From Cirrosporium novae-zelandiae (Eukaryota): a stretch of 64,000 bases of DNA. The notes under the pieces were generated by a model that did no database searches, was not told where the DNA came from, and worked only from the letters and a program-made list of their open reading frames with translations. Within the stretch, counting starts at the first letter, position 1; every line of letters begins with the position of its first letter. Below are positions 9,525-64,000 of this stretch, piece by piece. Location of the stretch: the NCBI GenBank assembly GCA_026023565.1, contig JAPETS010000011.1, positions 620,001 to 684,000 of the forward strand, read 5' to 3'. The position numbers and the translations under genes are program-made.

Positions 9525-10820
9525 TAGGGCCCGACGTGGAATTATCCTATCCCTTACATTCCATAAGCATACCCCCCCCCCCCGAACTTAGATAGATATA
9601 ACCTAGGCCTTTCCCATCTTCAGGAGAAAAGCGAAGCGCACCCATATACACATATACACACACGCCTACACATCTATATCCATGCCAAACAATCTCGAAA
9701 ATTACAAACACCCCAACAAATCTTAGAACAACCCTTCCTTCCAACCCTTCCAATTATACTTAATTCAACCCCCCCACCCCTTTTTCACTTCTTATCACAT
9801 AAATCCTAGAGTCTCTCTCACCTTTCCAAGTCCATACCCCAATAAACTAAACCAAACAAATAAATACGTCCATGCCATACCATATAACCCCCGTTTAGAT
9901 TCTATTTAGCTAATCGTAATACCATCTCCCTCCCTCATTTTCCCTCTATATATATAGACTATATAGCTCATACACATACACACATACACACCACTCACAC
10001 GTGTGTTTGTAGTAACCAATCACTGGATTGACTTTTTTAAATAAATAAGTAAATAAATAGAATTTGGTTTGTTGTGATGATGGTGTGATAGTGATGGTGG
10101 TATGTAACTTAGATCGTAGGGGGATGGGGGTGGGGGTGGAGGATGATATGAATAGTATATACCTAGATGTATAGTAACGATTATACTATCATACTATCTA
10201 TCTATATATCCTATATATCACCAAATGAAACGAACGCTCCACCACTCCTCCCCCCTTTTATCCTACCCCTCTCTCCAACCCCCCACCACCCACAATATAA
10301 AAAATTTAAAAAATTCACCACCCATTTCCCCCAAAAGTTTTTTCGTTTTATAAAACCCTTATTCCGCCATATAGATATATCAAGTAAATAAATAAAAAGG
10401 TTTTAGGAACTAAGTCTAAAAAAAAGAAACTAAAGGAAAAGAATCTTGAATTTTTTTTTTAATTAACTCTATTGCTTTGGTTTGGTTTGAAGAACTGGCG
10501 GGGGGGGGGGTTGGGAATTAGATTATATAAGTTGGGAGGTGGGTAGGTAGTACTGGAGTTTTATCACGTAGGGTAGAGGGGGGAGGGGGGGGCGGGTGTC
10601 TAGGAGGAAGTGTATATGTATATACATACGCGTTGCACATCATGTGCGCCCTCTCGCTCAATACAATGAGAGAAACGGCAAATGAATAAATGATAAGTAA
10701 CGAATGAATGATAGCGATAGATAATTAGTCAAGATACGTACGGTAGGTATATAGGTATACGGTATACGGTATACGGCAGTGCTAGGAATTAAGCTCAATA
10801 TCTTAACTCTTAGACTAAAA

Positions 10821-57806: not shown

Positions 57807-58487
57807 GGGGGGTGTGGGTCCGTGGGGGTTGTTATAACGGGATTGAAATGAAATCAATTGACATGCGGCTTATTTCAGGGAACTGGGGGATTGGTAGGAT
57901 GAACCATGAACATGTGTACGAACGAATGGAGAAGGAGAGCAGAAAGCGAAGGTGTTGTACAGTAAGTAGTAGATTCGGTAGTGCTTACACAATAATTACT
58001 ATGTTTTGACGTTGGACTGGTTAGGTAATTTCATAAGGCAGGGTGTATATTACACAAACACGACACACGTGACGCTTAACACACCCAAAAGCAAAGAAAC
58101 CTCGGCAACTGACTGCTCAACTCCCTCTAATACACAGTAAGCGACTCCCCACTTTATCGATAAGGCTGGTAAGTTACGGAAAATGCCGCTCGTGTTTCAG
58201 TGTTTTCGCTGACATTGAAATTTTGTCAATCAGTCTTTCATGGCTTGGACGTTCCTGGCCTTAGCAAAGCCAGAGTTTTGGAGATTCTGCCTTTTGCGAA
58301 ACTTCTGTTCCCCATGCAGCGATTTTCTATCCGCCGACTTGCTCATGAAGATCCCTTAAACCATTTTGCCCGCGCATAGCACAACTTTGACTCACCTCTC
58401 ATCTTTTCCCGACATCTGCACCTGGTCCTTTAAAATCACGAAAATTTCCTTCGCTATTCTTGATATCGAGAATTCTAACTTACCAAT

Positions 58488-59940
58488 ATGGTCCGCAATA
58501 TCGTTGTTTTGGGAGGCAGTTCTCATCCTCAATTAAATGAGACTATCTGTAATCATCTTGGTATCGCCCCCGCCGATGTCTTCCTTGGAAAGTTCTCCGT
58601 TGGCGAAACTCGCGTTGAAATCAAAGAATCTGTTCGGGGAAAAGATGTCTACATATTACAAACTGGCAGTGGAAAGGTTAATGATATCTTAATGGAGCTG
58701 TTTATCACAATCTCAGCCTGCAAAACTGCCTCAGCCCAGAAGGTCACGGTGATCCTACCTCTGTTTCCATATTCAAGGCAAAGTGACATTCCATACAATA
58801 AAACCGGCGCACCTTTGGTGAAATCCTCAAATCGGTACAATAGACCAGGTTTCGCCAATGATTATACCTTTAACAGCAGGCCACAGACCCCGCATCCTAA
58901 CATGAGCGAGAGCGCCGGCCTTACCAATGGTACAGACATGTTGGTCAAGCAGCTGGCAAAGACCCAAATCGATGACCCTAACAGCCAGGTCAAAACAAAC
59001 GGGATCAACGGTGTTCCAAAACGCAAAGATACATTAGATTCAATCACATCCGATTCAAGTACTGTTCGGAGACGAAACATGTCTGCTTCTTCGGGTACAA
59101 CAACAGCTCCTCAGGACGATACAGTCAGTATAACTTCTGGCTCTTCAAGAGCCCCAACCTTTCAACCACGTCCGGGCTATAAACAATGGGTCGCTCAAGC
59201 TGGAACGCTTATAGCCGACCTTCTTACCTGCGCCGGTGCAGACCATGTTATTACGATGGATTTACACGATCCCCAATACCAAGGGTTTTTTGATATTCCC
59301 GTCGATAACCTTTACGCAAGACCCTTACTCGAGAATTACATCATGCGCAAAATTCCAGACTTCAGAGAAGCCGTCATTGTGAGTCCAGATGCTGGAGGTG
59401 CAAAAAGGGCCACTGCGATTGCGGAACGCTTAGGCATGCGATTTGCATTGATCCACAAGGTGAATCTCACTTAAGCACATACGTTGGCAATCCTAACAAT
59501 CAAACTCAAGGAACGTCGACCTACACGTATCACCGATCGACAAAACGCCACCATGATATTTGTTGGAAACGTAGCTGGCCGTAGTGCCATCCTGCTCGAT
59601 GACCTTGCTGATACCTCAAATACCATAACAAGAGCAGCGAAGCTGTTGAAAAAGGAGGGCGCAGAAAAGGTATATGCCCTGATTACACACGGGGTTCTTA
59701 GTGGAGATGCGATCGAGCGTATAAATGCTAGCGCTCTTGACAAGGTTGTGGTCACGAATACTGTTCCCCAGGCCGAACACAAGAGACTTTGTCCTAAACT
59801 CGAAGCTCTAGAAGTTGGCCACGTCTTTGCAGAGGTACGGTCAAAACTTGCTCCTAGAAATGGATAATATTAACCTTCTCTAGGCAATCCGACGAGTTCA
59901 TCACGGTGAAAGCCTCAGCGCCCTCTTCCAATACGACTAA
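58488..59940 (+). CDS. prs5: Ribose-phosphate pyrophosphokinase (PRPP synthetase), Prs5-like with a long non-homologous insertion
   Basis: [29 protein letters not shown] followed by a >100-aa S/T/N-rich insert, [49 protein letters not shown]. Last exon [18 protein letters not shown] ends at 59940. The paralogue call rests on insert position only. Confidence 0.88.
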
Positions 59941-61161
59941 TTCTTGACACATCTATCCATATCACCCCTCGTATCAAAATCCTGTGCATCGTATACATTC
60001 GGGAGAAAAGTTTTCTTGGATAATCGGAGTTTTTGATCATCATGTTGCTTCTACCAAGTGCTGGGCGGGGCTTACTCGGGTCGGCCATTCGAATTGTTAA
60101 GAAAAGACTATTCGCTCGGTTTTGGAGGGACCGGGTATATATATGTACAACGCTCAAATTAACATTACTGGATTAAACCATGCAAATGCATATAATGTTT
60201 GCATTAACTTTCCAACAGCTTAGAATTTACTGATATCAAGTTAGAATATGACATCTGGTCCAGACAGCCCACTGATCCGAGATGTATAACGATATGGGAC
60301 AGGGTGACATTCTTATTGAATAGCTGATAGCCATAACTACCAGGGATACCGACGGTTACAGACACATGCATGGTGACATGAGGAATAGGATGAGGTGTCT
60401 GAATTTTTTTTCAATTGCATCGTACCCTTCATCTCTGTAGGAAGTGACATGGCCCAGGTCACCATAGTCGTTGCAACGATGAGCTGTCGATATGAGAAGG
60501 GCAAGACGCCAGGGTTTAAATTTGAATTTGAGTAAGGGAGGTAGGGGCATGAGCTGACTGGGCTGCTGGGATGGAAGGATTCCTGAATTGCTTGATTGCT
60601 GATATAGACTTTATTTAATTCATTTCACTGTTCGCCTCAATGCAATTCGTGGTCTTTCAATAGATTCTGTCGAATCTTTTTTCATAACGAAATTAAAAAG
60701 CTATGACGTTTCGTGGTGTTGCACCAAAAGCGTGGCACGGCACGGTAATCCCAGTAGCCGCTTTAGATTACCCAGACACGACATATCATTCATTGTCTGA
60801 GGTCCAAAAACACCAACCACTAGTAGTTGGCAGTGAGATAACATCCACGGTCAAAAGAGACAAGCAGAACAAGTGCACCCTTTCTAGGATAAGAGGCAAT
60901 GGCAAGAAATCCCTGTCTTGAAATATTTACGCAGCGACTTAATAGATCTTCACTTGCTTGCTCAGCAGCTTGTATAACCCCGCTTTATTTCAAGCATACA
61001 CATTACAAACAAATCAATGTCTCTCGTGAAGCCGCACCAGTCAGATAAAGGGAAAATGGGCCTATAGGCAACCCGCCAAGTTATCAGATTTCACACCACT
61101 ATAATATAACATGTGTTGTCGACCATCTGTTAGCTAACGAGAAAATTAAGTCAAATCAAAG

Positions 61162-64000
61162 ATGTCGGCACAGTTTCATTGGAATTTGCCAGGCTTGGAC
61201 AAGCCTCAGTTTACAGCTTTTGTGAATTTACTGTCTCTACGAAACGGTGGACAGCTTGATCCCTCCTCTATCGATGAATACGACGAACTTGATGACCTCA
61301 CTGATGACAACCCAAGAAGCATGACCGGTAGTATCGTTAATGGCCAAATATCTTTCTCCTTGGATGATGGATTGCGAAAAAGATTCTTGGATAGGCTTGG
61401 AGAGCTACTATCCTGCGAGAAGGGCGCAAGGCATGTTGCGAGTGCAGCCATGAAGGAGTATGAGCAAGAAGATAAGGTCGAAATATGGGTTACACATAAT
61501 GAGCCCTTGGAAAAAGGTGGGGCAGAACCAGAAGCAGCTCTCAAAACTCTTATCATGCATCTAGAAGAGCTACTTTCTTCAGATCCTAGCGCCGACGCTG
61601 TAGGTAAGTACGTTTGATGTCCCCTTGTTTGATAGCACCGACTTTCCTGTTGAAGTCTTTCCTGGTAATTCATGTTGCACCCAGAGAGCGACATTACCAG
61701 ATCCTTTTCAAACTTATTGTATCGATAGGATATGAGGAACTTGAAGAATGCACTTGGCAATCAATGCTCGAATACTACAGACCTAGAATCCGTGATACAT
61801 ATATTCCAAATCTCAAACGTTCCATGAAATCCTGTAGGCGGATATTAATGAGGTGCATTGGAAATCTATCATCGCCCGCTCTGACCCAATTACAAGATGA
61901 TCTCAAGAAGCTTTATGCTACATGTTTTGAACCACAAAATTGGCAGCCATCCATGGCCAGAGATGATGAATTGGTCCAAAGGGCTTTCGATATCCGGCAA
62001 TCTGTGAGCAGCCATCATGACATGCATAAGCTTCTTGATAATGTTGCCTCAGCAGATGATCTCTGGACGAACATATGCTTCCTAGGTCGACTCCGCGCAG
62101 CATTTCATACTTTCTTAGCCATGTCTCTTCAGTTCAAGGGCTTTAGGGATGTAAAGATTCATGTCGTGCAAGGTTTTGGGAGGAAAATAAAACCCAAATC
62201 AGGTCAATTGAGCTTATCAAGCACCCTCGAGCTTCTTGGCCTTAAAGCGGATCAGCCAACGATCAAAACCTATCTTAATAAGAAAATGTCCTTGGCCAAG
62301 GCAACCAACGAGTTTTCAAAATTACAGGCACAAAAGTCGCATTGTCACGCAGAAGTCCAGCTCATTCTTGAACTGGCTAAAAATAATGTACAAAATCCAT
62401 TTCCGTACATTGGGTGTAGTAAACGGAGCTGTTGGATGTGCTATGCATTCATAAAAGCATATGGCGATTTTACCACCCGAGGCTGCCACGGACAACTGTA
62501 TTCGCGATGGATAGTTCCAGACCATATATCACTCCCAAAACCCATGGTCTCTAGGCTATATGCCACACTGCACCATGTCAAAAGCATGCTCAAACAAGAG
62601 CTTATGCATCCGGCATCTCAGCCGAAGAAGCATCTTGTCGAGTCAACGGCAGGACGCACAGAGTCTATGATGATGGTGCCTTCAGAAATTTCAGAGCCAT
62701 CGCCCAACAATAGGCTCTTCCAGGGGGAAGCTGCCAAGGCAGGAAACAATCAGACATTGCTCGATATCATACGACAACCTTGGCCAAACAACTCTGGGGA
62801 AGTCGATTCCTCAAGCGAATATTACAGTGACCCTCAGACCTCGGCCACTGAGAATGAAAACTACAGTACAATATCAGGACGACGAGCGGATAATATTGAG
62901 CCAAGTGGAGGAGAATGCTGCGTTTGCGGGGAGGAAACTACGTATAAGTGTTCGAAGTGTCATAGAGACTGGTTCTGCACCGAAAACTGCGAGGACAATT
63001 CACCCGCCAGTCATTCATTCAGGTGTAACCTTGGGCGACCCTTGGACTCCGCTGACTACCTATATCTTGCTTGCATTCAGGATGAAATGCCTGATGATCC
63101 GCAAACCCTAGTTGATTTTGGCTTTAATCGACTCTACAACTTCATGGAGCGCTCGGCCTTGCTTGGCTTGTATAAGGGATTGTTGCTGTATTCCGACGTC
63201 CCAGCACCTACCCTTCACGACTGGCAGGTAAACGGATCCCTCGTGGAAAATATTACAGACATTTACATGAGGATTCCGGAGAATTGTCGTGGACACTACT
63301 TCCCTTGGTTTTGCAAGAACAAACACATTCTTGATGGGTCGAAGAATGAGGATGAATCCTTGCAAGAGTTTGTTTCAACCTTTTATGATGAGGCAAGACT
63401 GCATCTCCAGGTTGAAGATCGGGACAAGGATCCAACAGCACTACAGCCAGAGGCGAAACGGATTGCTTTTACGTTCTTTGCGTTGACCTTGCATGGAACT
63501 CACCCTTCCCCAGATCAAGAAGAATTATACTATTCATTTGGCTTCTGCACTTCCATCGACGAGAGGAATGAGGATGCGTTAGGCGGCCTCTACCAAGCAC
63601 TTCTGACGGGAAATAAGTTCTGGAAGGAATTTCGAGCATCACCTCATGCCGACCCCATCTACGATTCATTATTCCCCATAACTCCCTGTACTTTCGCCGA
63701 ATTCTGGCAGGCCTTTGAATCCGGGAAGCTGATCCAGCTCATGGATGAAAGGGGGTTACGTGAACAGCGTCAGGATTTTACTGCCCAGGGCCTAGATACA
63801 TTTCTCTCATATCGTCCGGGTGGGGCATGTCCATCGGTATTTACGCTGAAGCATTTTCTCGCTCAGAAAGACACGATCAATGCTCCTGCACCAGTCTTGG
63901 TAGATTATGGCTTTCAGAACTGCAGGACGCATCGTGACAATCTTAGGCTCAAGGAGGTTTACAATCGGCTTTTGAATAAGATGGGTGTGGGCCCGCTGGC
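61162..64000 (+). CDS. OTT_1508-like zinc-dependent deaminase fused to a MYND-type zinc finger and a repeated C-terminal domain (3' end beyond the window)
   Basis: Exon 61162-61603, intron 61604-61728, then a frame I read as open from 61729 to 64000. Deaminase core HCHAEVQLIL...PYIGCSKRSCWMCYAFI...RGCHGQLYSRW at 62340-62510. MYND-like CCVCGEETTYKCSKCHRDWFCTENC...HSFRC at ~62917-63027. Confidence 0.85.

Follow-up and report, generated by a model that had tools for sequence, protein, structure and literature searches.

A spliced Cirrosporium novae-zelandiae gene for an OTT_1508-like deaminase fused to a MYND-type zinc finger, a candidate partner-recruited editing enzyme

The stretch of Cirrosporium novae-zelandiae DNA analysed here, called the window below, comprises 64,000 nucleotides (contig JAPETS010000011.1 of assembly GCA_026023565.1, positions 620,001 to 684,000 of the forward strand) and carries at its 3' end, from position 61162 onwards, one intact, spliced fungal gene for a 944-residue protein. 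In this protein a deaminase of the OTT_1508-like type is followed by a low-complexity linker, a MYND-type zinc finger and a helical C-terminal domain. This identity and architecture of the gene we regard as highly likely, and we consider it on balance probable that the best overall explanation holds, an OTT_1508 fusion enzyme whose most likely reaction would be adenosine-to-inosine (A-to-I) editing of RNA and which would recruit a partner through its MYND finger. An initial annotation, made from the letters of the window, had read the locus as an editing or defence enzyme with a targeting module, which is a reasonable inference from the sequence. The parts of the gene, all on the forward strand, are as follows (pLDDT, predicted local distance difference test; HMM, hidden Markov model).

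61162..61603, forward: exon 1, with the ATG at 61162; residues 1-147 plus base 1 of codon 148
61604..61728, forward: intron of 125 nucleotides, GTAAGT...TAG, phase 1; donor at 61604, acceptor ending at 61728
61729..64000, forward: exon 2, open to the end of the window; residues 148-904 of 944
61731..62141, forward: region 5' of the catalytic half; helices 121-285 in the model, with VIA four-helix-bundle matches over residues 118-295 (Z up to 6.5)
62142..62651, forward: catalytic half, OTT_1508-like deaminase; residues 286-455, Pfam PF14441 at 353-412, domain model pLDDT 89.9
62346-62354, forward: HAE motif, H354-A-E356
62412-62423, forward: G-x-x-K motif, G376-C-S-K379
62430-62441, forward: CxxC motif, C382-x-x-C385
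62487-62519, forward: H...WxxP loop, HGQLYSRWIVP, with H401 and W408-I-V-P411
62652..62903, forward: low-complexity linker, predicted to be disordered; residues 456-539, pLDDT below 50, stop-free
62916..63026, forward: MYND-type zinc finger; C544, C547, C555, C558, C564, C568, H576 and C580
63039..64000, forward: C-terminal domain, helical throughout, that belongs to no named family; residues 585-904 (plus 40 beyond the window), local HMM E 1e-129

A listing of open reading frames (ORFs) with open ends gave two forward frames at this locus, 61162..61617 (151 residues, starting with ATG) and 61614..63998 (795 residues, open at the 3' end), and removal of the 125-nucleotide intron fuses the frames of exon 1 and exon 2 in phase. 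The protein collection's own product of the locus, the 944-residue P0002, reads ...SADAV-G-YEELEE... over the same junction, and the junction is confirmed because P0002 reads across exactly 61603/61729. The window covers residues 1-904, and the last 40 codons, which lie beyond its edge, were taken from P0002. The open exon of more than 2.2 kb described in the initial annotation corresponds to 61729..64000, with no in-frame stop in 756 codons, compared to 26 and 54 stops in the two alternative frames; in 2000 shuffles of exon 2 a version free of stops never arose, and its open frame is more than chance. Among 20000 shuffles of the 84-codon linker, 1.3% lacked a stop (P 0.013). With exon 2 free of stops and P0002 in agreement, deaminase, linker, finger and C-terminal part form one continuous frame, as had been proposed. 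That the gene was missed by the ORF track had also been presented as notable, and this point falls away: the default listing of the region holds the exon-1 ORF and an antisense 184-residue ORF and nothing else, and exon 2 is absent from it because ORFs running off the window are suppressed, a trivial edge effect.

Exon 1 codes for the start of a family-specific N-terminal region (local N-terminal HMM match at 61162-61596, E 6e-48), in which the predicted alpha1, beta1 and beta2 elements of the deaminase core are located (helix 69-83, strands 93-100 and 105-112). The intron splits this match in the window at HMM positions 135/139. A split match was likewise seen at 23 related loci; the break lies at HMM positions 132-142 in 22 of these and at 117/137 in the locus L021. 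The intron position is common to distant relatives and is therefore old, which suggests an old gene structure. Nine ORFs at the locus (six antisense inside the gene and three in the upstream spacer) contained no Pfam family, an Rfam scan of 59800-64000 gave no match, and with the local HMMs each of the four modules was detected just once in the window.

The strings HCHAEVQL, YIGCSKRSCWMC and GCHGQLYSRW all lie in the exon-2 frame. The Pfam profile OTT_1508_deam (PF14441) matched the protein with 75.1 bits against a cut-off of 27 (E 4.4e-21) over model positions 1-64 of 64, and was positive in all 21 aligned family members and in 42 of 42 homologues from a search with exon 2; this profile check agrees with the clade that the initial annotation had named. 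The HAE...CxxC site that it had described is indeed intact, with H354, E356, C382, C385 and W408 invariant in 42/42 sequences, and G376-C-S-K379, H401 and W408-I-V-P411 are invariant or at least 90% conserved in the aligned members. Table 1 of Iyer 2011 gives as signatures of the clade a GxxK before the CxxC and an extended loop joining strand 4 to helix 4, in which there is a conserved polar residue (mostly His) as well as an aromatic-x-x-Pro. Judged by its motifs, the protein contains every clade signature listed there and falls, within the clade of OTT_1508-like nucleic-acid deaminases, in the fungal branch. The local N-terminal HMM was matched by all 42 of the exon-2 homologues and by 111 of 137 further representatives. 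The OTT_1508-type family of this deaminase is large: an exhaustive search with the catalytic half yielded 1535 representative clusters at E <= 0.001, 198 of them at <= 1e-10.

The full-length AlphaFold (AF2) model had a mean pLDDT of 75.8 and a predicted template-modelling score (pTM) of 0.51. It places the alpha1, beta1 and beta2 elements given above before a long helical bundle (residues 121-285), which is followed by the HAE helix; in the AF2 models the HAE and the CxxC start helices 355-365 and 383-392, respectively, which are separated by a short strand. The predicted order of elements is that expected for a deaminase core bearing a helical insert. Residues 286-455 folded alone gave a pLDDT of 89.9 and a pTM of 0.84.

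The eight ligands of the finger are conserved in at least 90% of the members and follow the spacing C-x2-C-x7-C-x2-C-x5-C-x3-C-x7-H-x3-C, which we take to be the MYND consensus spacing. The Pfam profile zf-MYND (PF01753) was matched at E <= 1 by 16 of the 21 family members (best 1.9e-5), and a profile built from the 21 members matched the solved MYND domains of ZMYND10 (2d8q, E 3.9e-7), ETO2/CBFA2T1 (1.7e-5 to 1.5e-4), SMYD2 (1.3e-4) and DEAF1 (7e-3). The top row of a Foldseek search was again the MYND domain of ZMYND10 (2dan; probability 0.99, template-modelling (TM) score by target 0.62, but E 0.97), and VIA on the full model aligned 54 residues to 2dan with a Z of 5.5 and a root-mean-square deviation (rmsd) of 4.6. 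At the level of the family profile the finger is thus a predicted MYND-type finger. Residues 585-944 form helices throughout, are modelled well and stay conserved up to the C-terminus. No Pfam family matched this C-terminal domain, and its only real look-alike in the ESM Atlas was a cluster named 'MYND-type domain-containing protein (Fragment)' (TM 0.63); we encountered the domain only alongside this deaminase family. A complex prediction with residues 67-455 and 540-944 gave a score of 0.00, which was obtained without controls or alignments and carries no weight for or against docking of the two parts.

Homologues of the protein are found in Ascomycota (Acephala, Wilcoxina, Aspergillus, Lasiosphaeria, Biscogniauxia and Camillea, as well as Fusarium verticillioides, Grosmannia, Periconia and Aaosphaeria) and in Basidiomycota (Sparassis, Scleroderma and several Pisolithus paralogues), with a best non-self identity of 39-41%. 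A separate homologue search with residues 340-455 gave 7 matches from 23 candidates, and neither these 7 nor the 42 exon-2 homologues included a Neurospora protein. The architecture of the relatives was scored with local HMMs for four blocks, i.e. the N-terminal region, the deaminase, the MYND finger and the C-terminal domain. The C-terminal module was present in 36 of the 42 near-length homologues, from both Ascomycota and Basidiomycota; among the 137 further representatives of the catalytic half, 35 had the C-terminal module, 6 the finger only and 96 neither. Both halves were found in 21 of 30 metagenomic loci, co-linear and on one strand in every case (21/21).

In addition, 90 short proteins matched the MYND/C-terminal part only, and deaminase sequence was found in none of them (0/90). 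A conserved internal Met (MP[DE][DE]..DFGFN) is the first residue of at least 26 of these 90 (for example P0108, P0109, P0113, P0122 and P0130), and the start of others falls inside the finger or in the stretch after the deaminase; most of the 90 come from metagenome gene callers that ignore introns. Many of the short calls are therefore probably clipped gene calls, and the recurrent start at the internal Met may be either a pattern of clipped annotation or a real shorter isoform. The 'Rosetta-stone' idea, in which stand-alone MYND/C-terminal proteins would be cofactors of deaminase-only proteins, is weakened, as many of the short calls look clipped. The loci of two distant relatives, L029 and L030, contain the N-terminal block and the deaminase block (the latter at 10184-10390) and no MYND or C-terminal block in the locus, including 10 kb downstream; genuine deaminase-only genes therefore exist in the family. 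In a FastTree phylogeny of the deaminase half (146 rows, of which one, P0001, is a self-duplicate) all named Basidiomycota fell in one supported clade, and fused and non-fused labels were interleaved with 30 changes; the tree is uninformative on a single origin of the fusion because these labels are unreliable.

The substrate of fungal members of the clade had been regarded as not established in the initial annotation, which is outdated, since OLD-1 and OLD-2 of Neurospora, two OTT_1508-like deaminases, have been reported, in commentaries on Honda et al. 2025, as A-to-I mRNA editors that correct premature UAG codons in the adjacent genes zao-1 and zao-2 during virus infection, at sites in mRNA hairpin loops with a U at position -1 (PMC12754623, PMC13327615). 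By analogy with OLD-1/2, A-to-I editing of RNA would be the most likely reaction of the protein described here, in which the zinc/catalytic site formed by His354, Glu356, Cys382 and Cys385 would carry out the deamination of a nucleic-acid base. The disordered linker would tether the finger and the family-specific helical domain to the deaminase, and this MYND/helical module would most likely recruit or regulate the enzyme via a partner, and not via a neighbouring target gene as in the OLD-ZAO pairs. MYND fingers bind proline-rich peptides of partner proteins, and for this reason the module is likely to be partner-recruiting. We infer the activity, the substrate (RNA or DNA, A or C), the binding of a partner and the biological role of the protein, and we put forward RNA A-to-I editing guided by the MYND module or its partner tentatively, as having a little less than an even chance of being correct.

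A number of results weigh against this reading, several of them from the searches for a deaminase fold. Foldseek against the Protein Data Bank (PDB) gave no match at E <= 0.001 with the full model, and no deaminase, and again no match at E <= 0.001 with the 170-residue domain model. A VIA-wide search with the full model was dominated by helix bundles (Z up to 6.5) and retrieved no deaminase, and with the domain model it gave a best Z of 4.1 and no deaminase above noise. The sole deaminase row, blasticidin-S deaminase 3oj6 in the VIA search with the domain model, was ranked 19th, with 66 aligned residues, a Z of 2.5 and an rmsd of 4.2. The four fold searches thus did not provide the structural support for which the initial annotation had asked. 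Similarly, the family profile matched no deaminase chain among the PDB sequences, and hhalign of the family against Escherichia coli TadA gave an uninformative probability of 0.3. The domain model lacks beta1 and beta2, and the C-terminal elements are degraded in the OTT_1508-like clade (Iyer 2011); because of this incomplete fragment and these degraded elements we did not take the fold searches as negative. The MYND finger proposed in the initial annotation holds at the level of the family profile but not for the single sequence, which scored 11.4 bits with zf-MYND, below the cut-off of 22.7 (E 0.36), and 11.7 bits in another scan. Deaminase and MYND share one stop-free frame in only 7 of the 21 co-linear loci, and the other 14 either call for an extra intron in the linker or represent two adjacent genes. 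Furthermore, Iyer 2011 deduced from loop features that the clade deaminates cytosine, possibly in DNA, and the likeness to OLD-1/2 is taken from the published descriptions of these proteins.

Both roles that Iyer 2011 proposed for the fungal deaminases, chromatin-directed DNA mutagenesis and defence against the hazards of heterokaryon formation, have to be weighed against RNA editing. As a DNA mutator, the protein would be brought to certain regions of chromatin by its MYND module and would deaminate cytosine or adenine in the DNA of selfish elements or fast-evolving genes. The same account ties the clade to AID/APOBEC through the extended loop that links strand 4 to helix 4 and reads the MYND (and SIR2) fusions as chromatin-related, and the solved MYND domains matched by the family profile belong mostly to chromatin or transcription co-regulators (ETO/CBFA2T1, SMYD2, DEAF1). 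However, the only fungal members with a reported activity edit mRNA, from A to I (PMC12754623, PMC13327615), Pfam detects no DNA-binding or chromatin-reader domain in the protein, and the 15 kb upstream hold housekeeping genes and no repeat or transposon context, so that we find a DNA mutator unlikely. An effector of non-self or heterokaryon defence would instead be a toxic deaminase that is checked or triggered by the MYND/C-terminal module and acts, without sequence-specific editing, against invading nuclei, mycoviruses or incompatible fusions. Iyer 2011 suggested such a role for the expanded fungal copies and derived the clade from bacterial toxin domains, and the family is patchy and fast-evolving, as the low best identity and the several Pisolithus paralogues indicate. 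A HET-domain gene lies by the relative at L007, and a NACHT/WD40 gene resembling NOD-like receptors (NLRs) by that at L016, but of the 12 loci with scanned flanks only 2 have neighbours of this kind, and the neighbours of the gene in the window are those of a PRPP synthetase, an MFS fragment and a pseudouridine synthase; we consider a defence effector very unlikely.

A third alternative is that there is no single working fusion enzyme. The locus would then either yield two products, a deaminase alone and a MYND/C-terminal protein that begins at an internal start, or be a relic or scaffold without activity. The presence in databases of short gene calls for either half, the lack of the C-terminal module in 96 of the 137 closest representatives, the lack of the deaminase in all 90 short MYND/C-terminal calls and the in-frame stops or frameshifts in the relatives at L014, L015, L004 and L017 all point in this direction. 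In the window, however, the frame runs unbroken through the linker, which would be rare by chance (the P of 0.013 given above), every catalytic and zinc ligand is intact, and many of the short calls look clipped, whether from the conserved internal Met (at least 26 of the 90) or from inside the finger. This makes a split or decayed gene highly improbable.

The relatives in which the reading frame is interrupted differ in kind. The idea of a conserved premature stop in the linker found no support: as read from the coordinates, a change of frame takes place within the linker in 12 of the 14 loci whose ORFs are separate; the remaining 2 of 14 stay in frame, L018 with a TAA and L021 with a TGA, a TAA and a TAG. 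Single in-frame TAG codons were found in the C-terminal domain at L015:2712-2714 (..QEVN*WRIGG..) and L014:11604-11606 (..FFAIVR*SMHPNP..). A strongly conserved frame resumes past each of them, and neither is at the position of a conserved Trp. A change of TAG to a Trp codon would be possible by A-to-I editing, but two of two is not significant, and a pseudogene or an assembly error fits equally. The frame also changes over gaps of 2 and 4 nucleotides in conserved blocks at L004:1820-1823 and L017:5083-5088, respectively; L016, which is near-identical to L017, is intact there, and these changes are likely to be frameshifts or sequencing errors. Partial matches to the deaminase block lie head-to-head on opposite strands, about 40 nucleotides apart, at L023:665-1176 and L024:2213-2724, two near-identical contigs, and look like a rearranged or degenerate copy.

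The 15 kb upstream of the gene contain a pseudouridine synthase, a fragment of a major facilitator superfamily (MFS) transporter and a phosphoribosyl pyrophosphate (PRPP) synthetase, as determined by a Pfam scan that took in 14 of 36 ORFs, each at least 90 residues long, between 46 and 61 kb. The scan detected no zinc finger in these 14 ORFs, and the 15 kb showed no sign of repeats or transposons. The PRPP synthetase (58479-59867, forward) lies in two frames, Pribosyltran_N and then Pribosyl_synth, with a long low-complexity insertion between them that resembles those of the long yeast Prs isoforms. A tandem C2H2 pattern was absent from the window between 40 and 64 kb and from all 30 related loci, and a scan of 126 flank ORFs gave no C2H2 or Zn-cluster domain. 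These 126 were taken from 161 ORFs of at least 110 residues at 14 loci, from which two near-duplicate loci (L006 and L017) were omitted, as were 14 of the ORFs at L002 and, at L014, the 11 lying farthest away. The flanks of the related loci vary from locus to locus. The HET-domain ORF of L007 (7929-9965, forward) lies about 3 kb downstream of the relative, and the NPHP3_N/NACHT plus WD40 gene of L016 (5153-8904, forward) directly upstream; these neighbours recall fungal loci of non-self recognition.

Because no ZAO-like C2H2 neighbour was found on the 5' side of this gene or at the 30 loci, the MYND-fused branch is probably not organised as OLD-ZAO. We also considered whether the MYND module itself might correspond to ZAO and rejected this, as ZAO and its Fusarium homologue CHE1 are described as proteins of about 310 residues with three C-terminal C2H2 fingers (PMC11169179) and are unrelated to it. 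The MYND-fused proteins could form a second, ZAO-independent class of fungal editors, in which a MYND/helical partner and not adjacency would pick the targets and the C-terminal domain would be an integral specificity or regulatory subunit; we regard this as quite unlikely. In a bolder extension, the TAG codons of L014 and L015 may be self-directed stop-correction editing sites that gate the full-length enzyme. Fungal OTT_1508 deaminases have gained a reported function only recently, with antiviral A-to-I editing in Neurospora. If active, the MYND-fused proteins would unite a compact editor and a detachable module for recruitment in one chain, and would be relevant to fungal defence and editing biology and possibly to editing tools.

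Among known systems, OLD-1 and OLD-2 are likewise fungal and nuclear-encoded and provide the only experimental precedent for a substrate of the fungal members of the clade in the sources cited. The target of OLD is a neighbouring C2H2 gene that carries a premature UAG, whereas no such gene was found within 15 kb upstream of the gene described here, its 3' side being off the window. The legend of the figure on Old1/2 in PMC12754623 names the deaminase domain only, and the word 'MYND' was not found in the text of that article. The fungal mRNA editing complex Tad2-Tad3-Ame1 is a zinc deaminase of the same helix-4 division, in which an accessory protein sets the mRNA specificity (PMC12754623), and the role of this accessory protein is analogous to the specificity role proposed here for the MYND/C-terminal module. 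It differs in being derived from ADAT, i.e. from another clade, and in consisting of a heterodimer and a cofactor encoded by separate genes.

The bacterial OTT_1508-like toxin domains, such as that of Orientia OTT_1508, fall within the same Pfam family and share the signature motifs; they are described as C-terminal tips of proteins that are secreted, in many cases accompanied by an immunity gene (Iyer 2011). Here, by contrast, the deaminase is in the N-terminal half of the product of an intron-containing eukaryotic gene, and Pfam detected no delivery, repeat, immunity or secretion family in the protein or in the neighbouring ORFs scanned. ZMYND10, ETO/CBFA2T1, SMYD2 and DEAF1 have the same eight-ligand C4-C2HC pattern, with profile homology at E 3.9e-7 to 7e-3, but pair their finger with SET, NHR or SAND domains and carry no deaminase or C-terminal helical domain.

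The closest parallel is the group of fungal OTT_1508 deaminases that Iyer 2011 described as having a distinct alpha+beta domain, lineage-specific expansions and extreme divergence, and among which fusions to a MYND finger had already been reported. These MYND-fused deaminases, for example MGG_12698 of Magnaporthe, have the same signatures, N-terminal region, helical insert and MYND fusion as the protein described here, and both that group and the present family occur in ascomycetes and basidiomycetes. MGG_12698, compared here by its description only, also bears a SIR2-like domain, whereas Pfam detects none in our protein; conversely, the helical C-terminal domain of about 360 residues is not mentioned in the account of MYND fusions given in that source. 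No functional study of a MYND-fused OTT_1508 member was found in the literature searched. The gene, whose product is of the kind annotated as a hypothetical protein, is an addition to an already described architecture rather than a surprise.

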